Source of the DNA: Bacteriovoracaceae bacterium
GTDB taxonomy: Bacteria; Bdellovibrionota; Bacteriovoracia; Bacteriovoracales; Bacteriovoracaceae
Length of the DNA stretch: 64,000 nt
Assembly (NCBI GenBank): GCA_965224385.1
Contig: CBDCYX010000012.1
Location: 246,426 to 310,425 of the forward strand
Direction: 5' to 3'
Of the stretch, positions 13,392-58,249 are shown in pieces (positions within the stretch are counted from its first letter, which is position 1; each line of letters begins with the position of its first letter). The translations under genes and the position numbers were made by a program. Under the pieces are notes generated by a model. It searched no databases and had not been told where the DNA came from. It saw nothing but the letters and a program-made list of their open reading frames with translations.

Positions 13392-13459
13392 AAATATTAA
13401 AGCAAAAAAATTATTCCTTGAACAGGCCTAATGCAGCGCAAATGCTTATTTATTTTTAT

Positions 13460-15482: not shown

Positions 15483-15560
15483 GGCCTTAATGCTTTCAAA
15501 CATGGGGCCTTTGAGAAGATCAATATTTTCATGGGCCGTACAAGAGATGGGAAGAATTTT
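15483..15560 (-). pseudogene. obg: obg (GTPase) remnant, C-terminal piece
   Basis: Translates as KKILPISCTAHENIDLLKGPMFESIKAY, matching the Obg pattern P.ISA.T.EGID.L. Confidence 0.45.
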
Positions 15561-15565
15561 TTTAT

Positions 15566-15811
15566 CTCAAGTGTGGCCCTAAAACCTCTTCCTTCAGGGA
15601 GAGGATGTGAGGCCACGCCCTTCGGCGAGAAAAAAAAATATTGTCTTTTGAAGAATATCATAATATATTGGATTTGTCGGAACAAAAACCGACCTACCGT
15701 AGGGACTACGGGATGTGAAGCTCGTGGAGACGATGTAAGACCTAGAAACTTGTGTTCTAGGCGATTGTCGGTGAAGCAAGAATCTTCTCACTTTAGTGAG
15801 GGGTAGTTCAA
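15566..15811 (+). mobile_element. Non-autonomous IS200/IS605 mini-element, copy B
   Basis: 246 bp, near-identical to copies A and C. Preceded by TTTAT (15561-15565) and ends in TTCAA (15807-15811). It separates the two obg remnants. Confidence 0.85.
15641..15669 (+). promoter_or_regulatory. Putative sigma70-type promoter in the mini-element linker, reading into the omega-RNA-like scaffold
   Basis: TTGTCT-17 nt-TATATT. The same motif is at 13535-13563 (copy A) and 52033-52061 (copy C). A diverged version, TTGACA-17 nt-TTAAAT, is at 39001-39029 (copy D). Confidence 0.4.
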
Positions 15812-24061: not shown

Positions 24062-24220
24062 ACTACCCCTGCCTAAAGGGAGGAGATTCTTGCTTCCCCG
24101 ACAACTGCCTTAGGCACAAGTACCTTTGGTCTTACACTGTCTCCACAAGCTGTCACGGTAGTCCCTACCGCCAAAACATTCTTTGCCGCATTGATGTCTC
24201 GGTCGTGAGTACTCCCACAA
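24058..24220 (-). ncRNA. Predicted omega RNA (reRNA) scaffold of TnpB, overlapping the tnpB 3' end and RE
   Basis: The position is canonical for TnpB guide RNAs. The region is conserved in the coding-free mini-elements, with compensatory stem changes. The 5' boundary is uncertain. Confidence 0.55.
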
Positions 24221-25245
24221 CTTGGACAATCCCAACGACGCATACTTAATTGCAATTCTTTGTTTCTATATCCACAATGTGAGCAATCTTGGGACGTGAA
24301 TTTTGGGGAAACTTTTTTCAATTCCCTACCGTACCAATCACATTTATACTCAAGGAAATTTACAAGACTTCCCCAAGAACTGTCACTTATGGACTTAGAA
24401 AGTTTTCTATTCCTAACCATTCCTTTTGTGTTCAAGTCCTCGATATAGACCACTTGGTTCTTGCGAACTATATCCGTACTTAACTTATGGAGGAAGTCCT
24501 TCCTGGAATTTCTTATCTTTGAGTGGACTCGTGCCACAAGGTTTCTCTGTTTTTCTCTATTCTTTGAACCCTTCTTTTTACGAGACAGGGACTTTTGTTC
24601 CATTCTTAGTTTGCTCTCTTGAATGTAAGTATACTTCGGATTGCCCGATTGAAAACCGTCGCTACCAACTGCTACATCCTTGATTCCCATATCTAGGCCG
24701 ATTGTTTTTCTTACAAGCGCCAAGGGGCGCATCTTCTCTTCTACCAGTATCGAAACAAAGTAACTTCCGTCACAATCTTTGGATATTGTTAACGATGAGG
24801 GCGTTCCTGCGGTGGAACCGCAAAATTTTCTCGACCATACAGGTTGTATCCCTCCCAATTTCGCAACCTTTAAAATGCCGTCTCGAAAAGTGAATCCATT
24901 CTTCATGTAGTTGGCCGATTGTTTCCCGGCCCTATTCTTGAAACGTGGATATTTTGCCAATCTCTTAAAAAAGTTAGAATACGCCCTATCTAAATGCCTC
25001 AAAGATTGCTGAAGCGTCACACTTGAAACATCAGACAACCACTCCTTTTCAAACTTTAGTTCTTTTAGTCTTTTGGACGTTTCATTGTAACCGAGACCTT
25101 TACCGGTTTTTTCATACGCCGTCTTCCTATCTTGAAGGCCCCAATTATAGACAAAACGAACACAACCAAAGGTTTGGGCCAACATCTTCTTTTGGGTCTT
25201 ATTCGGATAGAATCGGTATTTGTATGCTCGCTTGACTACCTTCAT
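24073..25245 (-). CDS. tnpB: TnpB RNA-guided endonuclease (IS605 OrfB family), catalytic residues present
   Basis: MKVVKRAYKYRFYPNKTQ start. RuvC motifs IGLDMGIKD, VYIEDL and HDRDINAAKN. Zinc finger CSHCG...CPSCG. Confidence 0.9.
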   Translation of the reverse strand: MKVVKRAYKYRFYPNKTQKKMLAQTFGCVRFVYNWGLQDRKTAYEKTGKGLGYNETSKRLKELKFEKEWLSDVSSVTLQQSLRHLDRAYSNFFKRLAKYPRFKNRAGKQSANYMKNGFTFRDGILKVAKLGGIQPVWSRKFCGSTAGTPSSLTISKDCDGSYFVSILVEEKMRPLALVRKTIGLDMGIKDVAVGSDGFQSGNPKYTYIQESKLRMEQKSLSRKKKGSKNREKQRNLVARVHSKIRNSRKDFLHKLSTDIVRKNQVVYIEDLNTKGMVRNRKLSKSISDSSWGSLVNFLEYKCDWYGRELKKVSPKFTSQDCSHCGYRNKELQLSMRRWDCPSCGSTHDRDINAAKNVLAVGTTVTACGDSVRPKVLVPKAVVGEARISSL

Positions 25246-25269
25246 CATCTCAACTATACTTGGTCTCAT

Positions 25270-25695
25270 TTGAAAAGGCAAACAAGCAATGACAGGATTC
25301 GTAAGGGAAGGCATTGTGTCTTTGCTTTAACCGTGCATTTGGTCTTTGTGCCAAAATATCGGCGAAAAGTATTCTCAAAAGAATTACTTGATATTGTACA
25401 AAGCTATTTTGAGAAGGTTTTGGACGATTTTGAAGCAACTTTAGTGGAATTTAACGGAGAATCCGATCATGTGCATCTTCTCATCGAATATCCACCAAAA
25501 CACTCTATCTCAAGAATGGCAAATTCTTTAAAAGGCGTTTCAAGTAGATATTTGAGGCAATATCATTGGAAAAAAGTTTCTCCTTTTCTTTGGGGAAAGG
25601 CATTTTGGAGTCCAAGCTATTTCGCAGGAAGTGCCGGAGGTGCAACTATTGAAAAACTTAAGCAATACATCGAAGAACAAAATACTCCATCTTAA
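25270..25695 (+). CDS. tnpA: IS200-type Y1 (HUH) transposase TnpA
   Basis: HLVFVPKYRRKVF, HUH motif DHVHLLI and catalytic-Tyr context WSPSYFAGSAGG. No ATG is at the right distance, so a TTG at 25270 is proposed. Confidence 0.8.
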   Translation: MKRQTSNDRIRKGRHCVFALTVHLVFVPKYRRKVFSKELLDIVQSYFEKVLDDFEATLVEFNGESDHVHLLIEYPPKHSISRMANSLKGVSSRYLRQYHWKKVSPFLWGKAFWSPSYFAGSAGGATIEKLKQYIEEQNTPS

Positions 25696-25845
25696 GAAAA
25701 ATCTATTTGTTCAGGCCACAAATCATTCTCGCCGAAGGGCGTGGCCTCACATCCTCTCCCTGAAGGAAGAGGTTTTAGGGCCACACTTGAGATAAATAAA
25801 GGGTACTCAAAAAAGACATTGCTATTCTTACCTTCTTGTGCTAAA

Positions 25846-38295: not shown

Positions 38296-38408
38296 AAAGC
38301 TCTCCTTGCTTTTAAATGTGGTTAAAAAATAATAGTCCTCCTTTATAATAAATTTTGAACACCGAAAACGCAAAAGATTTTTATATTACCGATTAAAATG
38401 GTTCATTA

Positions 38409-38938
38409 ATGGTACCGGAGAGTTCCGGACTCTCCGGTATGAACAGAAAAAATCTTCATCCGGATTATCTTTATTCGCTTGTACGAGACTGTTTTTGTCA
38501 GATAAGAGGCCATAGAAAATCTCTTGGAGATGCCTTGATGTCGGGTCTGGCGGTGTTTTCATTGGAGAGAGTTTACGAAATCTTTTTTCGATAAAACTTC
38601 CCCATTTCTTTGAAGAGTATAAGGAGTCCTTTTAGAAAATTTTTTTCTGAACTGCAACGTAGCAATGCTCTCAAAGAGTTTTCTACCGAACGAGTGATCG
38701 GGCAAAGAATTAAAACGGTAAAAAAAATTTATGTACGATATTTGGAATGTTGGCAATGCCGGCATTTTTAATAGACCAAGCACAGGAGATTGCATGTCCA
38801 TTGTTTAGAAAGGCCTTAGTGGGTAGGGCGAAGGGAAGCAACAGAACGCTGTGGGAGTTGTTCAAAAGTGCAGTGGAATGGTTTGTTTTGGATTCGCGGG
38901 AAATGCTTTTAAAAGGGAGGATTTACGAAGCTAATTAG
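38409..38938 (+). pseudogene. Internally deleted IS4-superfamily-like transposase remnant
   Basis: N-terminal-type MNRKNLHPDYLYSLVRDCFCQIRGHRKSLGDALMSGLAVFSL and C-terminal-type ..AFLIDQAQEIACPLFRKAL.. pieces with nothing between them. It is preceded by the palindromic IS-end-like CCGGAGAGTTCCGGACTCTCCGG. Confidence 0.55.
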
Positions 38939-39000
38939 TACAGATTAAGTGCGTTGAACCAAAAACGGCCGGAAAAACGCCGGGAACTTTTGAAATTTTA

Positions 39001-39029
39001 TTGACACTTTGTGGACAATAGTATTAAAT
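39001..39029 (+). promoter_or_regulatory. Putative sigma70 promoter upstream of the 4082-aa gene
   Basis: TTGACA (39001-39006), 17 nt, TTAAAT (39024-39029), with an A/T-rich upstream flank. No other obvious promoter lies between it and the ATG at 39216. Confidence 0.4.
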
Positions 39030-39178
39030 CTACTTGTAGGTGTGAGAATTAAGCACCAACCTCCCGTAAGAGACTATGGGATGTGAAGTTCGTGGAAACG
39101 ATGTAAGACCAAAAACACTTGTTTTAGGCGATTGTCGGTGAAGTAAGAATCTCCTCCCTTTAGGGAGGGGTAGTTCAA
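39001..39178 (+). mobile_element. Diverged partial IS200/IS605 mini-element (linker promoter + omega-RNA-like scaffold + RE), copy D; no recognisable LE
   Basis: 39053-39178 aligns with the RE half of copies A-C and ends ..GGGGTAGTTCAA. 39001-39052 aligns positionally with the linker (-35/-10 boxes). Confidence 0.7.
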
Positions 39179-39215
39179 TATTGGAAAGTAAATTTAGTAT
39201 AGGGAGGTATCTATC

Positions 39216-42200
39216 ATGAACGGACGTTTTGGCATCTCTGTTGTTTATATTTGTCTTATTTTACTGGTATCTTGTGGAGATAATAGTAGCGGAGGAAAGA
39301 AAAGCACCACATCTAAAGACATACAAACCCTCGATTGTTCAAATGAAATTATTAACGGAACCGGACATAAAAAATGGAATACAAAAACGAAGTCTTATAG
39401 GAATGTATGTGAAATCTCCGGTTGCTACGGAGGGTTTGATACTTTAGAAGACTCGGCCATCTGCTTAGAGACACTAATAGGATACTATTCCCCTCCTGAA
39501 AGTAAACTTCGAGAGGAATGCCCCGGGACTCCCCCTCAAAATGCATCTCTTGTAACGGACACGTCGGGAATTTCCACCCGTCATGAGTGTTGGATCTGCA
39601 ATGACGGTTTTATTAAGGATGAACAAGGCAATTGTGTTCCTCCTGCTAAAGGAAAATATGTCGATGCGGAAGGAAGGGAGAGTGCTTGTTCTCCTATTAT
39701 GGGAAACGGTTTTAAGGAATTTAGAGGCCATGGAGGAACATCTCCCGAGGGTTGCAACTTTTCCTGTAAAAGCTCCCATACAAAAAATACGCAAACAAAA
39801 ACTTGTGACGAAAGAAACAAAGCATCTCAATATTGCCAGGTTGGTAACGGAGAAGGAATACGCATAGGGGGAGGATCGACCTGCTACATTACTTCCTGTG
39901 ATGACGGGTACGACAATATTAAGGATAGAACAAAGTGTGAAGAAACTCCATCGGGGTTTTACTCTTTTTTAGGACGAAAAATAACGTGTCCGAATCCTTT
40001 CAATTCTATTCCCACTGACAGAACCGGTCTTTCGTCTCCTTACAACTGTTATAGCTGTGAACCGGGTTATAAAAAGAGGGAAAGAGGAAGCGGATTGTGC
40101 ATCCTTCCCTTTCGGGGGAAGTACGTCGATACTACCGGCATCGAACAAAGTTGTACCGAGATACAAGGAGAGGGATTTAAGTCCTTTATAAAAAATACGG
40201 AAGGAGTCATGTCCGCCGATGAATGTGATTTTGTCTGTAGAAAGGGTTTTAAGAAAAATATCGTCGGACGAACGTGTGATAATATAGCTCTCGCAAACAT
40301 CCCCGGCGCAACTCCGGACGCAACGCCTGGAGAAACTCCCAATGTCGTACCCGAAGTAACTTCAGAATATTGTTCGATTGAAAACGGCATGGGCCAAAAA
40401 TTTTGTCAAGGCGGCCAATGTGGATCGTGCGAGGTTCAACGCTGTAATAAAAGTTATAAACCCAACACGAAAAACTCGACGAATCATCTTTGTACTGCCG
40501 CCGTCAAAAATTGTTCCCAGGAAATTGCAAACGGAAAGGGAAGGCGGCGTTGGCATGCGTCGACAAATGCTTATGGTGCCTGCAAAGTTGTTCAATGTTC
40601 TATCGGTTATGTGGACAAGAAAACTTCTTGTGCGATTCCTGATTCCGGCAAGTATGCTGATAAAAACGGTAAAGAAAAATCTTGTGAAAGTCTAGGGGGT
40701 ACGGGAAGTGGGCGTTTCCCAGACAACACAAAGGGAGTGAGAAGACCGGAAGATTGCAACTTTGAATGTGATGCCGGTTTTGTTAAAGACGTACCCGGTT
40801 ATGCCTGTAATATTCCGCCCACAGGATGGTATGCGAATAATAGAGGTGAAAAAAACCGTTGTGATAATATGGCCGGGTCCGGAATGGGTCGACATTTGCG
40901 CAATACAGAAGGTGTCACAACAGCGCAAGGCTGTGCCTTTACTTGTGATTTAGGTTATGTCAAAGACATGTCAAGTTATTCCTGTAATATTCCGAACCTT
41001 GGGAAATATGTCGGGGGGGGGGTCGTGAAAAACTGTGGCATTGTGGTGCACGGTCAACGTACGCTCAATACAGGGGCCGTCACAACGGCGACGGGCTGTA
41101 ACTTTGCCTGTGATGCCGGTTATATCAAAGATATGCGGAATTATTCTTGTAATATTCCTACTCTCGGACAATATTCAGGACCTTTGAGAACAGAGAGACC
41201 TTGTCAAGTGATAATCAACGGTCGGCATACGGCCAATGCCGGGGCGGTGGCAAACCCAACGAGTTGTAACTTTGCCTGTGATGCCGGTTACGTCAAAGAT
41301 CAGGACAACTATACCTGTAATGTTCCGAACCTCGGAAAGTATGTCGATAATGCCAATAACGAACTTCCTTGTACCAACATTACAAATATTCCCGATTTTA
41401 ACTCTTGGGAATCCGGCCCGGCCACCGATGACGATAGTTGCCCCTTTTCCTGTCAACCAAATTTTGTTGTAAACGGGAGAACTTGCAAGAAGGAGGTACC
41501 CAAAGTCACGGCCTTGGCCTTAGAGCAACATAAAAGTTATGCTCTCTTTAACAATGGTAAAGTCGAGAGATGGGGGGGGAGTTTGGGTGTTCCCCGTAAA
41601 GTCAATTTAGGCAGCGATAAGGCCCAAGCCGTTTTTTCAGGCCAAAACCACACCTGTGTTATTTTAAAAAACGCTAGTCTTGACCACGGACGGGTTCTGT
41701 GTTGGGGAGAAAACAATTACGGGCAACTGGGTGTGGGCGATATGATCGACAAGAGTGTGCCGACGGCCGTGACGTTTTTAGGTTCAAAAACGGCCAAGGC
41801 CTTAGGACTAGGATATGAGCACACTTGCGCCCTTTTAAACGACGATACCGTGAGCTGTTGGGGGAGAGGAGTCGAAGGCCAAATCGGAGGAAGGGGTAGC
41901 TTGCCGGGTATAAAAATCGAAAGCGGTTCCACAAACAATCCTCTAAGCGGAGGGACGGCCGTTCAGATAGCGGCAGGGTATTACCACACCTGTGCCATCT
42001 TAAACAATGGTTCAATCAAATGCTGGGGATTGGCAACGTCGGCCCAAACAGGTGGCGGGACTCCGAGTTTGGGAAATAATAAGACGGCCAAGCATCTTGC
42101 CTTGGCAGACCTGCACTCCTGTGCCGTTTTAAACGATGATTCTGTCTACTGTTGGGGGGCAGGAGTCAGCGGTAACCCCATCTACATCGGACAGGGAGGA

Positions 42201-43298
42201 GTTCCGGATTTAGGACACAATAAAACGGCCGCTTTCATTTCGGCAGGACATGACAACACCTGTGTTATCTTAAACGATAAAACTGTCAAGTGTTGGGGTA
42301 ACAATGATAATAATGAACTGGGCGGCGGTGTGCCCGATTATACCAAAAACAATAACATCTACACTTATCGGTCTTCCAAGGTTCTAAGGGGGATCAAGTA
42401 CAATCCTTTGGGGGGAGAAAAGGCCCTTTTTATTGCCGTGGGCAGAAACCACGCCTGTGCCGTCGTAGAGACGGGAAATACCGTTAAGTGCTGGGGGGAT
42501 AATGCTTACGGGCAGGCCGTAGGTGCTGTGAAAATGGAAGGGGGAAGCGACGGGACGGGTACGAGTTCCGGAGAGACGGCCGTGCTTACGGTCTCTTCGA
42601 CCCCCACACCGACGGCCTTGGAAGCGGACGCCGGCGGAAAAATCTGCAGGATTTCTCTTTCAGGCGGAGGACTCGGTAGAACTTGGGATATCGTGAACAA
42701 TGTCAATCTTGCCAATCTCCCAACTTATAATAGTTCAAACAATACATCTATTTCAAATGCTATCGACAATCTCGTTAATACCATCGGTACACTTCACTTC
42801 GTTGGGGCCGAGATAACCCTATCCCGAAGCAATAACGACAAAATCGAAGCATCCGTTAATAATGCCGTTTTTGACGGTATGACTCTTAATATCGCCCACG
42901 ACGATAACAGTGGTAATTGTAGTGGCCTGGTGACGACATCTTTTATGTTAAACGGTGGAAGCGGGGCCAATCAGGCCGAAGGAGTTTTGATCGTCAAAGA
43001 CGACTTTAAAGGGTTCGGCGACGGTATGGTCAATATCGACGGTACGGATATTTATTTGAAGGATGTTTTTCCCGCCCATGCAATACAGGAGATCGTAGAT
43101 AAAATCATTGGCGGACTTTCTTCTTTTAACTGGCCGGGAAAACAGTTCGCATCTCTACCCTATAGTGCGGCCAAACTCAATGGCGATACCGATAATAACG
43201 ACGATTGCCCGAGTGGCAATTTTTGTGTCGTCTTCACCCGGATGTTTGCCGGTACGGCCGGGAATGAGGTTATTCCCAAGGCCGATTTCGACTACGAC
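39216..43298 (+). repeat. Unit 1 of the giant ORF (1361 aa, includes the signal peptide and the longest Cys-repeat region)
   Basis: Ends ..NFCVVFTRMFAGTAGNEVIPKADFDYD. Confidence 0.75.
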
Positions 43299-46200
43299 GT
43301 TCCCTCTACCTCCGTTCTTGCAACAACGGCAAACTGCGGGGGCGGCCTTGTGAAAAATTTTCAAGGAAGCGGGAGTTGCGACACTCCCACTTCGGGAAAA
43401 TATGCAAATACTTTCGGAACGCCGATTGATTGTGACCCCGTCGGTGGGGTCGGTTTTAACACTTTTACCGCAAATACGGGAGCGGTCACAACCTCAAAAG
43501 GTTGTGCCTTTTCCTGTCGGGCCGGTTATAAAAAGAACGGTTATACCTGTGCCGTTCCCACGGGGGGGATGTGGGTAGATAACAACGGAGTCGAACAGAC
43601 CTGTACTGCTATTACCCTCGCTCGGGGAGCGAGTCGCATTTGGAAAAGCGGTCCGACAAGCGATGCCGATTCTTGCCTCTTTTCTTGTAGTGCCGGCCAT
43701 GTCCTCAATACTGCCGATAGGAGTTGTGATTTTCCTCCTCAAGGGTCTTTTGTAGACGCAAACGGCCTCCTTAAAGGCATTTGCGACCCCATTGCGCTCG
43801 CTATCGGAGCAACGTCTTCGTGGGTGTCGGGAGCGGCCGACTCAAAGACAGCTTGTTCTTTTTCCTGTAGAAGCGGTTATCTAAAAGATGAAACATTAAG
43901 GGCGTGTAACCATCCGCCTCAAGGACAATATGTCGATAATAACGGAGAAAATCCGATGGTCTGTAGGGTTCCTAGAGATGCCAACTATAAACAATTTGAA
44001 AATGGGCCGGCCGACTCTGCCAACTCCTGCCCTTTTTCATGTAATCAGGGTTATATAGTCAATCTGGGCGATAGGAGTTGTGATATTCCCTCTCCCGGAA
44101 GGTATGCAGACAATAGTGGAAACGAGGCCGATTGTACCGATAATATAGGAGGCATAAACGGAGCTTCCCGTTGGATCCAAAGTCAGGCCCCCGTCTCTTT
44201 CCAGGCGGCCTGCCCATTTACCTGTCTTTCCGGATTTTTAAAGAATTCCCTTTCTAGGAAGTGTAATTATCCTTCGTTGGGAGAATATACTGCCGATGGG
44301 ACAAACACCCTCTCTTGCGGTCCTATTTCCCTTGCCCGGGGGGCCGTTGCCTCTTGGGAGGGGGGCCCAGCGGATGCTGCCGATGCTTGTCCATTTACCT
44401 GTAATGCGGGGTATTTTCCCGACAAGAGAACCTGTCGAAAAATCAACATCAAACCCGTGGCCTTGGCCCTTGGGGCGGAAAGCAGTTACGTTCTTTTAGA
44501 CAACGGTACGATAGAAGGCCAAGGCAACACTTCCGATCCTTCAAAAATTCCTCTCAAAATAGACTTGGGGACTGATACGGCCCAAGCAATTTCGGCCGGA
44601 GACGGACACCGGTGTGCAATTTTGAAAAACGGCAATTTAAAATACGGCCGGCTTATGTGCTGGGGGCGCAACGGAAGCTACCAGCTTGGCCTGAGTGATA
44701 GCAACGACAAAACTACCCCGACGGCCGTTACCCATCTGGGAAGTACCTCTGTGGGTTCTTTGATGGTAAAGAGTGTGGCCGCAGGAGGAGAGCATACCTG
44801 TGCCCTCTTGCAAAACGATACCGTGCGGTGCTGGGGGTCCAACGATTACACTCAGATTGGCGGAAGAAGCGGTTATTATGTAAATAATAGAAAGATAAGA
44901 GGCAGTTACACCGATCCCTTACTCGGAGGAAAGGCCCTCAAAATTGCCGCAGGAGGAAAGCATTCCTGTGCTATTTTAAACAACGGCAGCTTGGTGTGTT
45001 GGGGATCCGACCGTTACAACCAGTCTAGTAATTTGAATTTAGGTGCCGGACGAACGGCCGTCGAGGTTTCGACGGGACTCATTCACACCTGCGCTATTTT
45101 AAATAACGGAGACCTCAAATGTTGGGGAGGGTACGGCCCCGTGAACAACACGTCGTCGGCCGTTCGTATCGCTATGAGTGTCCCGGATTTCGGAGGCAAG
45201 GCCGTCACGCAGGTGGCGGGGTACGATCACACCTGTGCCCTCTTGAACGACAAAACCGTCAAGTGCTGGGGGGGTAACGGCGAGGGGCAGATAGGCGGCG
45301 GCATTGCCGGGGTCAACCGCCTTCTCAGCGGTACTGTAGGCAACCCCTTGAGCGACAGGAAGGCCTTCTTAATTGCGGCCGGTGCGGGCCGTAGTTGTAC
45401 GATCTTGGAGTCTTCAGATTCCGTGAAGTGCTGGGGTAAAGACGACGAAAAACAACTTATTGGTAGTTTGGGCCTTGTAGGGGGTGTCAACGGAATGGGG
45501 ACGAGTGCGGGAGTAAGTGCGCAGTTGACCGCCGCTTCCTCACCGTCAACCACGGCCTTGGGTTCCGATATGAGTGCCATGTTTTGCAAGATAACCCTTT
45601 CCGGCGGAACCCTCACTTCTACCCAAGTCGTCAAGGAAGACCTCAATCTCACTTATAACAGTTCAAACGGAACGAGCATTTCAGATGCCATAACTAATTT
45701 GGTTGCGGCCGTAGGGCCTACCGTCACTTTTGCGGGAGCAATCATTACCCTGTCTAAAAACGGTAGCGACAAAATAGAAGCGACCGTTGACTATCCTTTC
45801 TTTGACGGTATGGATCTTAAAATTCATCACGGCCAGACAAGTTGCAATTCACCCGTCAACACGACGATTTCCCTGAGCGGAGGGGGAGGGGCCGCCCCTG
45901 CAAAAGCTTTGTGGGCCGTCAAAGACGACTTTAACGGACTCGACGACCACACTATCCTCCTAGATACTGTGGAGATCGACCTTGGCAGTAGCGTCCTCAC
46001 GAAAGAACAGATCGTCAATAAAGTTGTACAAGAAATCGGTGGGGGCAGTTGGACGGGCGAGCAATACATAACCCTTCCTTACACAGCGGTCAAACTCGAC
46101 GGGACGACTTCCACCTCCGACGATTGCCCCAGCGGCGATTTTTGTGTGGAGTTTACTCGGGTGTTTGCAGGTAAGGCCGGCAATAACGGCATCCGTTTTC

Positions 46201-49200
46201 CGGATTCCGACTATGAAGTCCTTTCGTTATCTGCGGCCCAATTGGCCTGTGTAAGCGGTGAAGTGAAAAATCTTAAAGGGGCCGGGAGTTGCGATATTCC
46301 CGCTTCCGGAAAATATGTAAATAACGGACAAGAGGTCGATTGCGACCCTGTCGGAGGAGTGTCTAATGCTAGCTCCTTTGAGGTCAACACCGGAGCGGTG
46401 TCTTCAAAGACGGGCTGTGCCTTTTCCTGTCAGGCCGGTTATAAAAAAGATGCCTATGCCTGTAATATTCCCGACGATGGAAGTTATGCCGATGCAAACG
46501 GAAACGAAGTTTCCTGTACGGATATTTCAAACACGCCCCATTTCAGCGCTTGGAAAAGCGGGACGGCCGCCGATGCCAATAGCTGTCCCTTTTCCTGTCA
46601 GACCGGGTATCTGGCCAATCGGCCCCAAGGTACCTGTGATATTCCCGACCCGGGAACCTTTGTGGACGCTTCGGGAGTAGAGCAGAATTGTAACCCCGTC
46701 GGAGGCGTGGCCGGGGTCTCTAAGTGGCCTAGCAATACGGGGCCTGTCAACTTGGTAAATTGTCCTTTCGATTGTGTTAGCGGTTTTCTCAAAGATAGCG
46801 TAACTAGAGAGTGTAACTATCCTCTCTTGGGAGAATACACCGCCGACGGAATAAGCTCGTTGTCCTGTGGTCCAATTATCAAAGATGACGGTGGATTCAA
46901 CGATTGGAAACAGGGGGCCGCCTTCGATGCCGACGGTTGCCCCTTTACCTGTAACCCAACCTATAGTGCCGAAGGCCGTGCCTGTCGAAAAATACAGCGT
47001 AGGCCAGTGGCCCTCTCTTTGGGGTACAAAACAAGCTATGCTCTCTTAGACACAGGTAAAGTTGAGGGTTGGGGTGAGACTATCGATCCCTTGAGTGTCC
47101 CCCACAAGATAAATGTTGGGGCGGATACGCCCCAACAACTTTCCGTCGGCGGCAAACACCGATGTATTATTTTAAAAAATGGAGGTCTTGATCACGGGCC
47201 TGTTAAATGTTGGGGAGAAAACGGCAAGCAACAGCTAGGAATCTCTAATGATAATTACCAAACTCAGCCGACGCTTGTGGCCACAAGTACTCTTTCGACC
47301 ACGGCAAAGTCCGTTTCGGTCGGTGGTAGGCACACCTGTGTCCTCACAAAGAACGATAAGGTCAGATGCTGGGGGGACGTCGGCCAACTCCAAACGGGCG
47401 GAGACCCCTTTAATATCACTCATCAGGGAAATTTCGTAGAAAAAGGTAACTGGTCTTTCCCTTTATGGAAAGGAAGTCAGAACCAAAATGCAAACGCTGT
47501 TTCAGCCGGTTACGAACATACTTGCGCCATCTTGAGAGGGGTTAAAACCGTTACATGTTGGGGGCAAGATGCCCACGGCCAGTCGGCCGGAGGTTCGCCG
47601 AATTTAGGTGTCAACCGAATGGCCAACGGGATTGAGGCGGGAACGAGACACACCTGTGCCCTCTTGGATAACGATAGCGTTAAGTGTTGGGGGAGTTACG
47701 GTAATCAAACGATTTCTTCATCGACAACCTTGGCCTTAAACGGCGGCATCACCAATATTACAAACGGTATTGTCGATTTAGGTAGCAAAACGGCCGTTAA
47801 ACTTACAGGGGCCGGACACACCTGCGCCCTTTTAAACGATGAGACCGTGAAGTGTTGGGGCATTAATGACGAAGGACAGATAGGCGGCGGTGTAGCGAGT
47901 ACCGGCCGTGTCCTCCGCAGTAGCGTAGGAGACCCGGTAAGCGGCCTGGCCGTCCTTGATATAGCAGCAGGATGGGATCATACCTGTGCCATCTTGAAGA
48001 CGACAAACGAAGTAAAATGTTGGGGGAACAATTCCGAAGGACAACTCATCGGTAGCGTTACCATGAAGAACGGCCAAGACGGGGTCGGAACAAGCACGGG
48101 GAAAACCGTCGCACTTTCCGTGAGTACTACTCCAAGTTCAAGTACCCTGGGAAAAAAGTTGAGTGCGAGGCTGTGCGGGATAACCCTTTCCGGCAGGGAC
48201 TTGCAGTCTCCTTGGACTCTTCAAGAATACGATTTTACCTATAACAATAGAAACAACGTCAATCTTAGAGATGCCATTGATAATGTGTTGAAGAAGATTG
48301 GAAGTGCCGACAACGCAGAATACTCTTTTTTGACTCGTGAAACAGTCCTTGAATTTAGAGGGGCGGCAGATGTCTCCGATCCTCTCAATAAAATCACATT
48401 TTCCGTGAAGGGAGGGGGGAGTAAACTGGCAGCGTCCGTAGATACTCCCATCTTTTCCGGTATGAGCTTGAATATTCTGCTCGCTAACGGGGACTGTCAT
48501 TCTTCCTCGGCCCTATCTATTCCCTTAAGCGGAGGAAGTGATACGGCCCAAGCATCGGGACTTTGGGTTGTGGGTCATGACTTTATCGGTTCGGGTGATA
48601 CAAGCGTGCAATTTGATGGGGTGGATATTGATCTTGGAAGTTCGGCCCTGACAAAAAAGGAAATTGCGGATAATCTCGTTGTTAAAATAGGGAGCGCTTC
48701 TTGGGGCGGTAAACAGTATGAAAAATGGCTTTATACGGCAAAAACGGTAGACAGTGCCTTAAACAGCGATTGCCCATCGGGAGACTTCTGTGTACAGTTC
48801 ACCCGTATTTTTCCCGGGATGTTGGGAAACAGCGGTATTCCCTTTGCCGACTCCGATTATGAGATACCCTCCGCTAATGCCCTTGCTTTAGTCTGCAATA
48901 CCGGTCTTGTAAAAAACCTTTTGGATGTAACTTGTGATAATCCTCCTGCGGGAAAATATGCAAATAGCGGACAAGAGATGGATTGCGACCCCGTGGGGGG
49001 AGATGGTTTTAACGTTTTTGAGACCAACACGGGAGCGGTAACGTCTGCTCAAGGTTGTGCTTTTTCCTGCAATGCCGGTTATAAAAAAGCTACCTACTCC
49101 TGTAACGTGCCTGTCGACGGAACGTATGTGGACGGTACAAATACGCCGAAAAATTGCGACCCCGTTACGCTTGCCTTGGGAGCGACGTCTTCTTGGATAT

Positions 49201-51464
49201 CGGGTGCGGCCGACTCTAAACAGGCCTGTCCCTTTTCCTGTTCGTCCGGTTATATTGTCAATAGGGGCGGATGGACTTGTGACCTTCCCGCTCCCGGAAC
49301 TTATGGTCTCGCCAACGGAAGCGAGACCGACTGTAACACTATAGGGGGTGCTCCGAACAGCTTTCAGTGGACGCAAAGTCCCGGTGCCGTCACATCGCCC
49401 TCGACTTGTCCTTATGAATGCCGTGCCGGTTATGTGAGCACTTCGGGCGATAGAACATGCAATTACCCGGGAAGGGGAAGATACGTGAACACCGACGGGA
49501 CAACCCAAGTGGATTGCGACAACCTTACCATGATACCGGGGTTTGAAGATTGGGCCGAAGGATTTGCTACGGCCCGTGATAATTGCCCCTTTAATTGCCT
49601 TCCCGGATATATTAGAGACGGGCGGAGTTGCGAGCAACTTGCGTCGATTAAACCCGTAGGTTTGGCGCTTGATAATATTCACAGTTACGTTCTTTTAAAC
49701 TCCGGTGAAGTGGAGGGTTGGGGGGCCTCTACCGAACTTTTCAAGGTGCCTTTTAAAATAGATTTGGGAGTGACAAACGGTGTAAGGAATACTGCCCAAA
49801 AGATTTTTGCGGGAGTTCATCACACATGTATTGTTTTAACAAACGCAAAGCTGGATCACGGGCCGCTTAAGTGCTGGGGGAGTAATGATCTGGAACAACT
49901 CGGAGTGGGGGATAGGATTGAAAGAACCGTTCCCACCGATGTAACCGCCTTGGGTTTGGATGCAAGCAATAATCCGTATACGGCAAAGATTGTGGCGATG
50001 GGTTCGTATCATACCTGTGCTATCTTAAACGACGATACCGTCAAGTGTTGGGGAGGAAACCACGTCTACGGACAGATAGGCGGTACGGCAAGAAATTCTT
50101 TCGGCAATAATACGATTGTAGAGAGCGGTAGCAGGGGTGATCCTTTAAGTGGAGCAAAGGTTGCGGGGTTGGCCACCGGAGGCGCAAGTTGTGCCATTTT
50201 AAAATCAGATAATTCCGTTAAGTGTTGGGGGTTGGATGACTCAGGCCAGGCCGCCGGCGGTGTGCCGAATTTGGGTACCAACAGAACTGCTGTTCAAGTT
50301 GCGGCAGGGTACTACCATGCCTGCGCTCTCCTAGACGATAAGGGCCTTAAATGTTGGGGGGCCGATAACAACGTTACCATTATCGGAACGGGAGGGGTTC
50401 CCGATTTGGGAGGTCAAACGGCCGATTTCGTTACCTCAGGCCTACATGCCGGGTACATCTGTGCCATCTTGAGCGACGACACCGTCAAGTGTTGGGGCGA
50501 TAATAGAGAAGGCCAGATAGGGGGTACCGCTACGACACCTACATCATCCTATGTACAAATACAAAGGGGGACGGCCGGTGGCCCCTTAGGTACGACCTCG
50601 GCCGCTCAGATTGCCGTGGCACAAGGACACGGCTGTGCTATTATGACGGACGACACCGTCAAGTGTTGGGGGGGAAACAGTAGCGGACAGATTGTGGGCG
50701 CCGTTAGAATGAAAGGTGGAACCGACGGGAGCGGGTCGAGTTGGGGAAAAACCGGCCAGTTAACTACGGATTCCACACCGAGTTCTCTTGCCTTGGATAA
50801 AGATAAAAGCGGTAAGATTTGTAAGATAACCTTGTTGGGCGGAATGCCTAGCAGGACTTGGACGCTGAAGTCCTATCAGACGCCAAAACTCTACAATACA
50901 TCAAGAAATACATCTATTTTCAATGCCATTGACAATATGATCGGCAAAATTGGAACGTTTCAATTTATGGGTGCGTCCGTCTCCTTTTCCAGAAAAGGTA
51001 AAAAGATCAAGGCATCGGTGGATAGTTCTATTTTTGACGGCATGACTCTTGGAATCGTCCATGCCGATAGTTCCGGGGACTGTTCAAGTCCGGTGACGAC
51101 CTCCCTTGTTCTTAGTGCCGGAACCGTTGGGGCCAAGGCGACGGGACTTTGGGTTATAGGGGATTCTTTTTCAGGAAAGAGCGACGATACAACCGTTCAT
51201 CTCGACGGTGCGACCGTTGACTTGGGTACCTCCTCCCTTACCAAAGAACAGATTGCCAATAACATCATAGGGAGAGTTATCGACGCCGGTTGGATGGGAA
51301 AACAGTACAAAACGCTACCTTATATGGCCGAAAAAATCGACGGAGCGACCGATTCCGCCGACGATTGCCCAAACAATGACTTCTGTGTTCTCTTCACCCG
51401 TATTTTCCCGGGGACGACCGGAAACGAGGGTATTCCCTTTCCCGACTCGGATTATGCCAAGTAG
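39216..51464 (+). CDS. Giant (4082-aa) surface lipoprotein made of four tandem Cys-repeat/RCC1/C-terminal-module units (family member P2)
   Basis: GGGAGG 8 nt upstream of the ATG. Lipobox ILLVSC. Uninterrupted ORF. The ..DDCP..FCV.FTR.F.G..GN..I.F.DSDY motif occurs four times. Confidence 0.85.
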   Translation: MNGRFGISVVYICLILLVSCGDNSSGGKKSTTSKDIQTLDCSNEIINGTGHKKWNTKTKSYRNVCEISGCYGGFDTLEDSAICLETLIGYYSPPESKLREECPGTPPQNASLVTDTSGISTRHECWICNDGFIKDEQGNCVPPAKGKYVDAEGRESACSPIMGNGFKEFRGHGGTSPEGCNFSCKSSHTKNTQTKTCDERNKASQYCQVGNGEGIRIGGGSTCYITSCDDGYDNIKDRTKCEETPSGFYSFLGRKITCPNPFNSIPTDRTGLSSPYNCYSCEPGYKKRERGSGLCILPFRGKYVDTTGIEQSCTEIQGEGFKSFIKNTEGVMSADECDFVCRKGFKKNIVGRTCDNIALANIPGATPDATPGETPNVVPEVTSEYCSIENGMGQKFCQGGQCGSCEVQRCNKSYKPNTKNSTNHLCTAAVKNCSQEIANGKGRRRWHASTNAYGACKVVQCSIGYVDKKTSCAIPDSGKYADKNGKEKSCESLGGTGSGRFPDNTKGVRRPEDCNFECDAGFVKDVPGYACNIPPTGWYANNRGEKNRCDNMAGSGMGRHLRNTEGVTTAQGCAFTCDLGYVKDMSSYSCNIPNLGKYVGGGVVKNCGIVVHGQRTLNTGAVTTATGCNFACDAGYIKDMRNYSCNIPTLGQYSGPLRTERPCQVIINGRHTANAGAVANPTSCNFACDAGYVKDQDNYTCNVPNLGKYVDNANNELPCTNITNIPDFNSWESGPATDDDSCPFSCQPNFVVNGRTCKKEVPKVTALALEQHKSYALFNNGKVERWGGSLGVPRKVNLGSDKAQAVFSGQNHTCVILKNASLDHGRVLCWGENNYGQLGVGDMIDKSVPTAVTFLGSKTAKALGLGYEHTCALLNDDTVSCWGRGVEGQIGGRGSLPGIKIESGSTNNPLSGGTAVQIAAGYYHTCAILNNGSIKCWGLATSAQTGGGTPSLGNNKTAKHLALADLHSCAVLNDDSVYCWGAGVSGNPIYIGQGGVPDLGHNKTAAFISAGHDNTCVILNDKTVKCWGNNDNNELGGGVPDYTKNNNIYTYRSSKVLRGIKYNPLGGEKALFIAVGRNHACAVVETGNTVKCWGDNAYGQAVGAVKMEGGSDGTGTSSGETAVLTVSSTPTPTALEADAGGKICRISLSGGGLGRTWDIVNNVNLANLPTYNSSNNTSISNAIDNLVNTIGTLHFVGAEITLSRSNNDKIEASVNNAVFDGMTLNIAHDDNSGNCSGLVTTSFMLNGGSGANQAEGVLIVKDDFKGFGDGMVNIDGTDIYLKDVFPAHAIQEIVDKIIGGLSSFNWPGKQFASLPYSAAKLNGDTDNNDDCPSGNFCVVFTRMFAGTAGNEVIPKADFDYDVPSTSVLATTANCGGGLVKNFQGSGSCDTPTSGKYANTFGTPIDCDPVGGVGFNTFTANTGAVTTSKGCAFSCRAGYKKNGYTCAVPTGGMWVDNNGVEQTCTAITLARGASRIWKSGPTSDADSCLFSCSAGHVLNTADRSCDFPPQGSFVDANGLLKGICDPIALAIGATSSWVSGAADSKTACSFSCRSGYLKDETLRACNHPPQGQYVDNNGENPMVCRVPRDANYKQFENGPADSANSCPFSCNQGYIVNLGDRSCDIPSPGRYADNSGNEADCTDNIGGINGASRWIQSQAPVSFQAACPFTCLSGFLKNSLSRKCNYPSLGEYTADGTNTLSCGPISLARGAVASWEGGPADAADACPFTCNAGYFPDKRTCRKINIKPVALALGAESSYVLLDNGTIEGQGNTSDPSKIPLKIDLGTDTAQAISAGDGHRCAILKNGNLKYGRLMCWGRNGSYQLGLSDSNDKTTPTAVTHLGSTSVGSLMVKSVAAGGEHTCALLQNDTVRCWGSNDYTQIGGRSGYYVNNRKIRGSYTDPLLGGKALKIAAGGKHSCAILNNGSLVCWGSDRYNQSSNLNLGAGRTAVEVSTGLIHTCAILNNGDLKCWGGYGPVNNTSSAVRIAMSVPDFGGKAVTQVAGYDHTCALLNDKTVKCWGGNGEGQIGGGIAGVNRLLSGTVGNPLSDRKAFLIAAGAGRSCTILESSDSVKCWGKDDEKQLIGSLGLVGGVNGMGTSAGVSAQLTAASSPSTTALGSDMSAMFCKITLSGGTLTSTQVVKEDLNLTYNSSNGTSISDAITNLVAAVGPTVTFAGAIITLSKNGSDKIEATVDYPFFDGMDLKIHHGQTSCNSPVNTTISLSGGGGAAPAKALWAVKDDFNGLDDHTILLDTVEIDLGSSVLTKEQIVNKVVQEIGGGSWTGEQYITLPYTAVKLDGTTSTSDDCPSGDFCVEFTRVFAGKAGNNGIRFPDSDYEVLSLSAAQLACVSGEVKNLKGAGSCDIPASGKYVNNGQEVDCDPVGGVSNASSFEVNTGAVSSKTGCAFSCQAGYKKDAYACNIPDDGSYADANGNEVSCTDISNTPHFSAWKSGTAADANSCPFSCQTGYLANRPQGTCDIPDPGTFVDASGVEQNCNPVGGVAGVSKWPSNTGPVNLVNCPFDCVSGFLKDSVTRECNYPLLGEYTADGISSLSCGPIIKDDGGFNDWKQGAAFDADGCPFTCNPTYSAEGRACRKIQRRPVALSLGYKTSYALLDTGKVEGWGETIDPLSVPHKINVGADTPQQLSVGGKHRCIILKNGGLDHGPVKCWGENGKQQLGISNDNYQTQPTLVATSTLSTTAKSVSVGGRHTCVLTKNDKVRCWGDVGQLQTGGDPFNITHQGNFVEKGNWSFPLWKGSQNQNANAVSAGYEHTCAILRGVKTVTCWGQDAHGQSAGGSPNLGVNRMANGIEAGTRHTCALLDNDSVKCWGSYGNQTISSSTTLALNGGITNITNGIVDLGSKTAVKLTGAGHTCALLNDETVKCWGINDEGQIGGGVASTGRVLRSSVGDPVSGLAVLDIAAGWDHTCAILKTTNEVKCWGNNSEGQLIGSVTMKNGQDGVGTSTGKTVALSVSTTPSSSTLGKKLSARLCGITLSGRDLQSPWTLQEYDFTYNNRNNVNLRDAIDNVLKKIGSADNAEYSFLTRETVLEFRGAADVSDPLNKITFSVKGGGSKLAASVDTPIFSGMSLNILLANGDCHSSSALSIPLSGGSDTAQASGLWVVGHDFIGSGDTSVQFDGVDIDLGSSALTKKEIADNLVVKIGSASWGGKQYEKWLYTAKTVDSALNSDCPSGDFCVQFTRIFPGMLGNSGIPFADSDYEIPSANALALVCNTGLVKNLLDVTCDNPPAGKYANSGQEMDCDPVGGDGFNVFETNTGAVTSAQGCAFSCNAGYKKATYSCNVPVDGTYVDGTNTPKNCDPVTLALGATSSWISGAADSKQACPFSCSSGYIVNRGGWTCDLPAPGTYGLANGSETDCNTIGGAPNSFQWTQSPGAVTSPSTCPYECRAGYVSTSGDRTCNYPGRGRYVNTDGTTQVDCDNLTMIPGFEDWAEGFATARDNCPFNCLPGYIRDGRSCEQLASIKPVGLALDNIHSYVLLNSGEVEGWGASTELFKVPFKIDLGVTNGVRNTAQKIFAGVHHTCIVLTNAKLDHGPLKCWGSNDLEQLGVGDRIERTVPTDVTALGLDASNNPYTAKIVAMGSYHTCAILNDDTVKCWGGNHVYGQIGGTARNSFGNNTIVESGSRGDPLSGAKVAGLATGGASCAILKSDNSVKCWGLDDSGQAAGGVPNLGTNRTAVQVAAGYYHACALLDDKGLKCWGADNNVTIIGTGGVPDLGGQTADFVTSGLHAGYICAILSDDTVKCWGDNREGQIGGTATTPTSSYVQIQRGTAGGPLGTTSAAQIAVAQGHGCAIMTDDTVKCWGGNSSGQIVGAVRMKGGTDGSGSSWGKTGQLTTDSTPSSLALDKDKSGKICKITLLGGMPSRTWTLKSYQTPKLYNTSRNTSIFNAIDNMIGKIGTFQFMGASVSFSRKGKKIKASVDSSIFDGMTLGIVHADSSGDCSSPVTTSLVLSAGTVGAKATGLWVIGDSFSGKSDDTTVHLDGATVDLGTSSLTKEQIANNIIGRVIDAGWMGKQYKTLPYMAEKIDGATDSADDCPNNDFCVLFTRIFPGTTGNEGIPFPDSDYAK
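43299..46217 (+). repeat. Unit 2 of the giant ORF (973 aa)
   Basis: Starts ..CGGGLVKNFQGSGSCDTPTSGKY and ends ..GDFCVEFTRVFAGKAGNNGIRFPDSDYE. Confidence 0.75.
46218..48863 (+). repeat. Unit 3 of the giant ORF (882 aa)
   Basis: Starts ..ACVSGEVKNLKGAGSCDIPASGKY and ends ..GDFCVQFTRIFPGMLGNSGIPFADSDYE. Confidence 0.75.
48864..51461 (+). repeat. Unit 4 of the giant ORF (866 aa)
   Basis: Starts ..VCNTGLVKNLLDVTCDNPPAGKY and ends ..NDFCVLFTRIFPGTTGNEGIPFPDSDYAK. Confidence 0.75.
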
Positions 51465-51731: not shown

Positions 51732-51957
51732 AATAAAGACCAAATCAGAGAAAGTTGTACAAAAAAATTTCAGGAGATAGCAAATCATTATGGTCTGAAC
51801 ATCGTAAATAAGGAACACTGTCTCTCTTTAGCAAGGAATCCCGCCTGTTTAGGGCAATAATATCGACGGCCGCAATTCCTTCTCAATTCTCTTGAGATTG
51901 TGGGGCCGTTTCGACTCATCTGGCGGCCGATCTCTCGTTGACTCAACCCGCTTTTAT

Positions 51958-52202
51958 CTCAAGTGTGGCCCTAAAACCTCTTCCTTCAGGGAGAGGATGT
52001 GAGGCCACGCCCTTCGGCGAGAAAAAAAAATATTGTCTTTTGAAGAATATCATAATATATTGGATTTGTCGGAACAAAAACCGACCTACCGTAGGGACTA
52101 CGGGATGTGAAGCTCGTGGAGACGATGTAAGACCAAAAACACTTGTTTTAGGCAATTGTCGGTGAAGCAAGAATCTTCTCACTTTAGTGAGGGGTAGTTC
52201 AA
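51958..52202 (+). mobile_element. Non-autonomous IS200/IS605 mini-element, copy C
   Basis: 245 bp. Preceded by TTTAT (51953-51957) and ends in TTCAA (52198-52202). Confidence 0.85.
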
Positions 52203-52291
52203 CAAAGCAATAGTGTAGACTGTCCGGCCTAACCCGACTTGACGCAATGGGTGATGCACTTCTTAGTTGAATTCAGGTAATATAAGAACTT

Positions 52292-52987: not shown

Positions 52988-53235
52988 GAATGAACCCGTC
53001 CCTTTATAAAAGGCATCAAAAAGTGCATCACTGGCAGAGGTTCCCGTTTTGAACCTTTTGCCTGTAAGTGAAGAAATCTTTTTCGCACTGACACTCAGCA
53101 CGAACCGCGCTGCTCCAAGAAAAAAGAAATAAAGATTTGTATTGCATTAGGCCTGTTCAAAGAAGTATTTTTCTGCTTTCATATTATGATGAGAACGATT
53201 AGCGGACTTTATGAGAAATTGTTTTCTCATATTTA
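52988..53235 (+). pseudogene. Remnant of the type-2 IS: leader plus the first 16 transposase codons, cut by another IS end
   Basis: The leader matches the reverse of 8564-8838. MMRTISGLYEKLFSHI (from 53186) matches the N-terminus of 11976..13391. It ends at the IS terminal repeat at 53236. Confidence 0.7.
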
Positions 53236-53305
53236 CTGGAGAGTCCGGAGTTCTTCCATGGAATTACACAAAGCATTCACCTAGGTATATTGCTTGACTC
53301 TCCAG
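53236..53305. repeat. Mini remnant bounded by IS terminal-repeat sequences
   Basis: CTGGAGAGTCCGGAGTTCT (53236-53254) and a partial inverse copy GACTCTCCAG (53296-53305). Confidence 0.5.
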
Positions 53306-53480
53306 TTGTTAAAAACAATTAAATTCTCTTTTAAGGAGAATATAAAAAAAATGTAAATTGCAAAAGATTTTTTTGTAAATTTTTACATTACCGAACCGAT
53401 TAAAACGGTTTATCAATGGTACCGAAGAGTTCCGGACTCTCCTGTTACATAGACGGTCGGGTTTAGTCTCGCAAAAGAAA

Positions 53481-58000: not shown

Positions 58001-58249
58001 GCTATGCTTTTTTGTCGTTTTATTCCAAACTTTTTGACCGCTACCGTTGTCGGTAGTGCAAGCTTTTGGTTTCGTGCTAGAGCTTGCCCCCGACGAATCC
58101 CCGCCGCCGCCGCCACTGTCACTGTCACTACCGCAGCTCGACAGTAAGAGAAGAGTAGCTACGAGAAAGTGGGGTCTCATTAATTCCACACCAAGAAGAG
58201 TGAGGTACCGTAAAAAAGTAAAGGTGTTTTTTGTGAGGATTGTTTTCAT
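55097..58249 (-). CDS. Large surface lipoprotein of the Cys-repeat/RCC1 family (member P3)
   Basis: AAGGAG 8 nt upstream of the ATG at 58249. Lipobox LLLSSC at the same distance (39 aa) as in P1. Seven (C/A)WG motifs. C-terminus ..DDCPANDFCVAFWRVFKGTEGNYGIPFGDRDYSH. Confidence 0.85.
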   Translation of the reverse strand: MKTILTKNTFTFLRYLTLLGVELMRPHFLVATLLLLSSCGSDSDSGGGGGDSSGASSSTKPKACTTDNGSGQKVWNKTTKKHSETCTITACDAGYDNVVDKTECQPTAATYYSPTNNNARIACSTPNNSSPTTTTGRSSADACFTCAGGYDNTQDPTKCQQTAANFYSPANNNARTACPTPSNSSPATTTELSSADGCYTCDGGYLKNTGENTCGVPSKGKHVNASGTEVSCSPITLQRGATATWIAGAAATADACPFSCSTGFVKSGRACNIPRKGHYADNGVEKSCSPITEDTGGFDDFVANTGAVSAADGCGFSCSTGFVKSGRSCNFPSTGNYVNTGNTEASCDSNPITTEGTATATWIAGAAATAATCPFSCSAGYLKDSSARECKYPTLGNYVNASGTEVGCTNITGMTGFGSWLDGAATDADSCPFSCASGYTISGRTCNKARPQTLALGRSSSHVLFDNGEVEAWGSVSTSPFKTHIKENLGNNTPQALESGYNHQCIILKNGSLNHGRLMCWGQNGGEQLGVGDTNPRSTPTDVSVAVLGDTGDGATPKTVKSVAAGDEHTCALLNDDTVKCWGQNSNGQIGGGSGAKNTISGTVGGPLGSTTANRISAGRWHTCAVLTDSTVQCWGTNAWGQTSGGTPNLGVNKTATEIAVGDISSCAILNDASVKCWGNKRIPSPSLGVNKTATRVTVGGNHACALLTDKTVYCWGRNPVGQLGSGVDASSRVLRGTTEGDPLGGQTAIEIATGYEHNCAIMESDHSVKCWGSNIDENDSGFYGQIVGEVAMAGGTDGTGTSTGESQVLTAVATPTATALDSDEDGQICKIELSGGTLSGTLGSWVAKEYTTPLTYNGGGSTAITDAIDNLIAAIGSTVNVAGTINVTLAKKDNDKIEATVNNAILDGMTLTIYHDDNGGDCTTGTVVTTAIPLTGGSGAAEAEGLWVISNDFSGSGDKTVNLDSVHIDLGTSSLTKEGIASKIVSEVSDVNWAGKQYVDLPYTTTILDGSSDAGDDCPANDFCVAFWRVFKGTEGNYGIPFGDRDYSH

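Follow-up and report, generated by a model that had tools for sequence, protein, structure and literature searches.

A left-end-less omega-RNA scaffold of an IS200/IS605 mini-element lineage upstream of a giant lipoprotein gene

The locus and its transposable elements

A 142-base transposon remnant lies directly 5′ of the gene for a giant surface protein in the window (the whole stretch of DNA that was analysed, 64 kb in length, with a GC content of 42%). The window stems from a Bacteriovoracales-like bacterium, whose NrdA shares ~76% identity with proteins of Halobacteriovorax and Bacteriovoracaceae. The main features of the locus are as follows.

38463–38938, plus strand: DDE (IS4-like) transposase pseudogene, internally deleted, located by tblastn with the 471-aa transposase of 11976–13391 (minus strand)
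39001–39029, plus strand: promoter-like TTGACA-17-TTAAAT, a 10/12 match to the consensus, ending 7 nt before the scaffold
39037–39178, plus strand: solo omega-RNA scaffold and right end (RE) of the resident IS608-like IS200/IS605 family, with the terminus GTAGTTCAA
39151–39170, plus strand: subterminal RE hairpin CTCCTCCC-TTTA-GGGAGGGG, of the TnpA-recognition type and the last stem of the scaffold
39179–39198, plus strand: flank directly 3′ of the RE, a putative guide segment, placed according to the layout of known TnpB omega RNAs
39193–39215, plus strand: leader native to the gene family, including the Shine-Dalgarno sequence (SD) GGGAGG at 39202–39207, assigned by homology to the leader of a paralogue
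39216–51464, plus strand: giant RCC1-repeat lipoprotein gene, 4082 aa, from the open reading frame list, with Pfam RCC1_2/RCC1 repeats

In the collection searched, the giant protein has no orthologue and is the only member of its cluster; a search with its N-terminal 450 residues against 5.8 billion proteins returned one match, at 34% identity. The intergenic region between the divergent RCC1 genes is 842 nt long and consists mostly of transposon debris. The DDE pseudogene is recognisable only in its N-terminal ~50 and C-terminal ~75 residues (transposase aa 10–49 align to 38463–38567 and aa 396–460 to 38714–38914), and no convincing terminal inverted repeats bounding this remnant were found. 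The stretch 38908–38930 (AAAGGGAGGATTT) was considered as a relic of a left-end (LE) hairpin; this assignment was rejected, since the stretch is explained by the remnant of the C-terminal transposase coding sequence. The same DDE IS family is represented elsewhere in the window by fragments at 373–489, 8441–8633 and 53121–53236, and by a full copy at ~11976–13457. DDE-IS fragments also adjoin both copies of a repeat of ~65 nt (38377–38438 and 53379–53445; 84% identical), which features a perfect palindrome, TACCGGAGAGT...ACTCTCCGGTA.

The IS200/IS605 family to which the remnant belongs is present at several other places in the window.

24058–25796, minus strand: reference full-length element, with tnpB, tnpA, an LE at 25726–25791 and a TTTAT target at 25792–25796
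24073–25314, minus strand: tnpB of the full element, with Pfam HTH_OrfB_IS605, OrfB_IS605 and Cas12f1-like TNB domains
inside the ORF 25132–25695, plus strand: tnpA (Y1 transposase), an NCBIfam IS200/IS605 transposase
51952–52202, plus strand: reference mini-element (PATE-like), with a TTTAT target, a 66-nt LE, a linker containing TTGTCT-17-TATATT, the scaffold and the RE
13454–13705 and 15560–15811: sister mini-elements, ~250 nt each

IS608 of Helicobacter pylori carries tnpA and tnpB, has subterminal hairpins at its ends and an RE that terminates in TCAA. The resident family, with the same two genes, subterminal hairpins and an RE ending in TCAA, is presumably of this type, although its host and target differ. 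The closest solved structure to the TnpB of the window is that of ISDra2 TnpB (8h1j, E 2e-81), and the GLDMG, IEDLN and DRDINAA motifs are kept in the alignment of the two proteins. The source assembly contains a TnpB cluster of 24 members, with at least 11 distinct sequences on two large contigs. In each of the three mini-elements, which are 95–97% identical to one another, a linker of ~60 nt joins the LE to the terminal ~125 nt of the element. TTTAT precedes, and GTAGTTCAA terminates, all six of the independent insertions that were examined, which points to TTTAT as the target/TAM.

Three side observations concern the surroundings of these copies. The mini-element at 13454–13705 begins at the last bases of a DDE IS end (...GCTTATTTATTTTTAT / CTCAAG, 13454–13460), and the AT-rich terminus of that IS apparently supplied its TTTAT target. 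The stop codon of an HtrA/TPR-like ORF (21542–24061) lies inside the RE of the full element (24058–24061), so that the insertion of this element took place at, or altered, the 3′ end of the ORF. A group II intron occupies 10090–11810, with Rfam RF02005 at 10090–10324 (98.6 bits) and a reverse-transcriptase ORF at 10560–11810.

Identity and fold of the copy at 39037–39178

A covariance model (R1) was built from ten other copies of the scaffold and RE (four in the window, six on related metagenome contigs), with 39037–39178 left out. The copy left out matches the full length of the model (positions 1–137) with a score of 99.4 bits and an E value of 4.5e-24; an R1 search of the 64-kb window found no copies besides those known. 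BLAST aligns 39055–39178 with the RE part of each of the three mini-elements, at 90%, 86.5% and 85.6% identity, and 39083–39179 with the tnpB 3′ end and RE of the full element (window 24057–24156), at 82%. The sequence-only reading had described an IS605 remnant consisting of scaffold and RE and ending at 39178, and these comparisons bear this out: judged by sequence, 39037–39178 is a real full-length copy of the resident family's omega-RNA scaffold and RE.

In full elements, scaffold and tnpB 3′ end overlap, and the stop codon falls in the loop of the terminal hairpin. This is also where TnpB omega RNAs are encoded, and 39037–39178 is homologous to exactly this part, the tnpB 3′ end and the RE, of a TnpB-encoding element. 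Its own right end is complete, with the subterminal hairpin, which is intact, followed by TAGTTCAA (39171–39178) and closing on the terminal cleavage motif GTAGTTCAA; over 39151–39178 it matches all ten reference copies. A 3-nt insert (GGGATGTGAAG) and the type of the 5′ hairpin are shared with the mini-elements only, indicating that the copy comes from the mini-element (PATE) lineage and that its left part has been lost.

The left part is indeed missing. No similarity to the LE was found in 38880–39054; a TTTAT is present at 38997–39001, with no LE hairpin after it. Without an LE the copy cannot move, and the earlier description of it as an immobile copy lacking this end was correct. Whereas a PATE has both ends, is non-coding and can be mobilised in trans, the RE half alone is found at 39037–39178. 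No TnpB-like ORF adjoins the copy, so it does not have a TldR-type arrangement. An Rfam scan of the window gave no family at the gathering threshold over the scaffold, its sole match being the group II intron at 10090–10324. A 21-nt core of the scaffold has five matches in a collection of genome contigs, none of which extends beyond the 21-mer; these are taken as chance matches for that reason.

The scaffold has a conserved fold. RNAalifold predicts 33 pairs from the ten copies, ten of them with compensatory changes. A pattern scan of metagenome contigs yielded 34 loci with 35 further scaffolds. Across 33 distinct metagenomic copies, 88.5% of the cells are paired, compared with 33–49% when the partners are slid, and 176 cells are doubly changed, compared with 54 in shuffles, although this alignment was fitted to R1 and therefore leans towards the structure. 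Covariation consistent with an omega-RNA structure is thus seen in both the ten-copy and the metagenomic alignments, and compensatory changes in the helix of the terminal hairpin are found family-wide.

The copy upstream of the giant gene forms 32 of the 33 consensus pairs, against 30–33 in active copies. It also carries seven changes that are absent from all nine other aligned copies, five of them transitions at columns that are invariant in these nine relatives: three C>T changes in G-C pairs (giving G.U), one pair-breaking G>A and one G>A in a loop. From the alignment, this looks like the pattern expected of unselected change, although the numbers are too small to speak for selection either way. 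The RE hairpin had been described as intact, with compensatory changes. It is intact, as described above, but the compensation does not hold: the C-G pair in question is also present in six of the nine other copies and in the mini-element of L013, a locus from a related organism. The A-T of the three window mini-elements at the same position is the minority state, and C-G, being the commoner family state, provides no evidence for compensation in 39037–39178.

The promoter-like site and the leader of the giant gene

The promoter-like site consists of TTGACA (39001–39006), a 17-nt spacer and TTAAAT (39024–39029). Both the motif itself and its placement just 5′ of the remnant agree with the original description. 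Sites matching at 10 of 12 positions number 15 per strand in the 64 kb, or ~0.23 per kb per strand. The site is missing from a stricter promoter scan because its −10 box has no A at position 2; in this region the stricter scan found two promoter-like sites, against 2.2 expected from shuffles, and in 39030–39215 it found no promoter-like (sigma-70-like) and no terminator-like site. The motif TTGACA-17-TTAAAT is a plausible promoter.

A position-for-position correspondence between this site and the linker of the mini-elements, which had been part of the same description, is not borne out. The ungapped register gives 23 identities in 46 positions, a value reached by 3% of all places and 9% of GC-matched places in the background within ±15 registers. 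Local alignment of 38980–39054 to the linker is at background level (550 of 2000 shuffles reach the score), and when 38880–39054 is aligned semi-globally to the LE plus linker, the score falls short of the background mean. Homology of 38880–39054 to the LE or the linker was rejected as not significant, and demonstrable homology to the family starts at ~39037–39055. The linker hexamers are themselves not conserved: the L013 mini-element of the related organism has TTGCCT and TACATT in their place.

Copies in other organisms show how such a module can be arranged. Among metagenomic scaffolds for which the upstream sequence is long enough, roughly one third are without tnpB. A promoter-like site lies directly upstream in 9 of 14 tnpB-less or remnant scaffolds and in 2 of 22 tnpB-linked ones, the copies not being independent; these layouts lend some support to the view that the module may have its own promoter. 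Examples are complete mini-elements of ~260 nt from a different lineage.

L023, 724–885, minus strand: scaffold
L038, 3717–3878, minus strand: scaffold
L047, 1163–1324: scaffold, the same locus as L038

L023 and L038 are 95% identical over 260 nt. Both have, in order, a TTTAT target, a short LE, a perfect TTGACA-17-TATAAT, the scaffold and an RE ending in GCTTCAA. A gene starts shortly after the RE in both cases: in L023 it is of the MnmA type, with its ATG 13 nt beyond the end of the RE, and in L038 it encodes a carboxylesterase, at a distance of 14 nt (both genes confirmed by Pfam). Since mobile mini-elements thus place promoter, scaffold and ribosome-binding site in the same order before unrelated genes, this layout is an ordinary outcome of insertion and is not in itself evidence of domestication. 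As a side observation, many RE ends across the family lie within 40 nt of the start of a same-strand ORF, with the reservation that the ORF calls are crude.

Upstream of the giant gene, the 3′ end of the remnant (39178) lies 23 nt before GGGAGG (39202–39207), and the ATG is at 39216. The paralogue at 55097–58249 (minus strand) has a leader homologous to the ~25 nt that immediately precede the ATG of the giant gene (TTAGTATAGGGAGGTATCTATCATG; none of 500 shuffles reaches the score). The region of the ribosome-binding site is therefore the gene's own, and the element lies ~15 nt upstream of it. Further upstream, 38940–39036 has no homology to the sequence that precedes the paralogue (282 of 500 shuffles score at least as high) or to the corresponding region of the L013 relative. 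As there is no promoter-like site and no room between the remnant and the ATG, the scaffold is most likely located inside the 5′ UTR of the giant gene, and would probably be transcribed there.

In the predicted fold of the leader the SD is not sequestered, and the stability is not unusual (z = −1.25). The 5′ arm of the RE hairpin (39153–39162, CCTCCCTTTA) is complementary to the SD region (39198–39207, TATAGGGAGG) at nine of ten positions, but the local hairpin wins over this pairing in the prediction and the SD stays free. No intrinsic terminator is predicted at the RE hairpin. A second match in the window to the putative guide segment 39179–39198 covers only its first 16 nt with three mismatches, which is within chance expectation. 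A 12-codon ORF (39181–39219, TTG...TGA) starts 12 nt after the SD-like GGGAGGGG of the RE hairpin, with its stop overlapping the start of the giant gene (ATGA); this arrangement may be a coincidence.

Origin and possible roles of the leader scaffold

We consider it likely that the remnant is a decaying, LE-less half of a mini-element, and that its presence in the 5′ UTR follows simply from where the element inserted. A mini-element would have inserted into the 5′ UTR of the giant gene, ~15 nt upstream of the native leader and ribosome-binding site. The region, in which a DDE-type IS has also been gutted, would later have lost the LE and most or all of the linker, leaving a non-excisable copy that appears to be drifting, with unique transitions at invariant positions and a fold that is still largely intact. 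Transcription of the giant gene would start upstream of the scaffold, plausibly from the TTGACA-17-TTAAAT at 39001–39029, so that the scaffold would be carried as a structured 5′ leader without being selected for a function.

Several observations fit this account less well. A 10/12 promoter-like site would not often arise by chance at a distance of 7 nt from the scaffold. The scaffold is 86–90% identical to its relatives while the sequence upstream is at random level, which could reflect selective retention of the scaffold and the two hexamers rather than a breakpoint. The fold is preserved as well as in active copies (32 of 33 pairs), and a subfamily of mini-elements may exist whose linker is the same as the sequence upstream of the remnant. 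On the account of a decaying half mini-element, the remnant is unexceptional in a genome with such a heavy load of IS200/IS605 elements, and its main use is in annotation: it accounts for the long structured leader and the repeat, and marks the proposed point of insertion.

The origin of the promoter-like site allows for a different possibility. It may not derive from the element at all, being instead the displaced promoter of the giant gene or an outward-facing end of the DDE-IS remnant, with the scaffold merely interposed between it and the ribosome-binding site. The lack of significant LE or linker similarity upstream of ~39037 fits with this, as do the end of the DDE pseudogene at 38938, ~60 nt upstream, and a TTGTAA-17-TATAAT in the paralogue 55097–58249 that ends 53 nt before its ATG (read by eye). 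A displaced promoter would be easier to accept if 38940–39036 resembled the region upstream of the paralogue, but 282 of 500 shuffles score as highly; an IS end is similarly difficult to reconcile with the failure to find a terminal inverted repeat of the DDE remnant, and the ungapped linker register is itself weakly suggestive of an element origin (p 0.03–0.09). We regard a promoter from outside the element as possible but somewhat unlikely.

The scaffold might also act as a stand-alone omega-RNA gene, with a promoter of its own and a transcript that is taken up in trans by the TnpB of other copies, read-through into the giant gene being incidental. PATEs carrying omega RNAs have been described, and often encode omega RNAs that are acted on in trans (Meers et al., bioRxiv 10.1101/2023.03.14.532601); the scaffold here is complete, and the promoter-like site directly upstream recalls the 9 of 14 tnpB-less or remnant copies mentioned above (2 of 22 for tnpB-linked copies, again not independent). 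Nevertheless, a copy with no LE is not excised, and no donor joint (TTTAT followed by TATTGGAAAGTAAATT) is then expected as a target for its guide. The other match to the guide in the window, with three mismatches, is at chance level, the scaffold has unique changes at invariant positions, and the linker hexamers are not kept in the L013 mini-element (TTGCCT, TACATT). A role in trans thus appears improbable.

We give still less credence to an exapted leader, in which promoter and scaffold have been kept to regulate the giant lipoprotein gene. Here TnpB would bind the scaffold in the mRNA and hold 39179–39198, and processing, stability or translation would be set through this “guide” segment, which ends 3 nt before the SD. 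The geometry is suitable, as the scaffold stops 23 nt short of the SD and the interval contains no promoter-like site; the scaffold is full-length with 32 of 33 pairs; there are many resident TnpB copies, and the TnpB of the window aligns to ISDra2 TnpB with GLDMG, IEDLN and DRDINAA; and the 5′ arm of the RE hairpin could pair with the SD region at nine of ten positions. Against this, the SD is free in the predicted fold of a leader of unremarkable stability (z = −1.25), the supposed compensation in the hairpin is the commoner family state, and the giant protein is an orphan. Domestication of the remnant, as suggested by the sequence-only reading, is not supported: the copy has five unique transitions at positions invariant in its relatives, and mobile PATEs produce the same layout before unrelated genes. 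A literature search for omega-RNA remnants serving as mRNA leaders returned nothing relevant.

The most far-reaching form of this idea, that the LE-less scaffold is a TnpB-responsive cis element tuning translation or stability of the giant mRNA and that the mini-elements of the family are mobile “promoter plus omega-RNA leader” cassettes, is very improbable. If it were true, such cassettes would couple the expression of downstream genes to transposon load, and a change in expression on binding of TnpB to a leader scaffold would be a new regulatory use, distinct from the repression of DNA targets by TldR. The metagenomic mini-elements with a consensus promoter, 13–14 nt before start codons, make the question testable in more than one system.

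Returning to the proposed decaying half mini-element, 39037–39178 belongs with the known PATE and omega-RNA derivatives. Like PATEs, it consists of scaffold and RE without tnpB, has a promoter-like site upstream and stems from the lineage of the three complete mini-elements of the window; unlike them, it has no left end and is a fragment rather than a transposable unit. The target motif of ISDra2 is TTGAT, in contrast with the proposed TTTAT here. In common with the ISDra2 TnpB-omega RNA (PDB 8h1j, 8bf8/8exa), there is a homologous resident TnpB, and the scaffold overlaps the tnpB 3′ end and extends to the RE, the flank beyond it supplying the guide, although no tnpB lies beside 39037–39178.

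Neisseria Correia elements are MITEs that supply promoters and structured 5′ leaders, with experimentally shown effects on expression. The remnant is similar in being a small non-coding transposon derivative between a putative promoter and a ribosome-binding site that ends up, by prediction, in an mRNA leader. It differs in coming from an unrelated element family. A TldR gene lies beside its guide RNA, and the guide targets a promoter in trans. In contrast, no tnpB adjoins 39037–39178, the resident TnpB keeps catalytic-type motifs and the “guide” is the local flank. TldR is described (PMC10705468) as a domesticated nuclease-dead TnpB acting as an RNA-guided repressor; an omega-type scaffold used for gene regulation rather than transposon maintenance, as in the TldR guide RNAs, is the kind of exaptation that the sequence-only reading envisaged.

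A relative in metagenome ERZ25072854 has TnpB sequences with up to 99.7% DNA identity to those here, its RCC1 genes being only ~80% identical; no counterpart of the 39037–39178 locus was found in the ~120 kb of this relative that were examined. Three further 21-kb loci of the related metagenome organism contain tnpB-linked scaffolds only, with no linker of the 39001–39036 type. The right flank of the mini-element 51952–52202 (52203–52261) is 87% identical to the element-free L013 19104–19165 (...CTCTTTT / CAAAGCAAATAG...), which from this alignment looks like an unoccupied site and would make the insertion of this mini-element a recent one. Two junction bases, AT, leave the TAM/LE boundary of 51952–52202 ambiguous. 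A near-identical IS605-family element at L013 8028–9783 (99.7% over tnpB) is interrupted by a different DDE IS, encoding a 475-aa transposase, that separates its tnpA from its tnpB.
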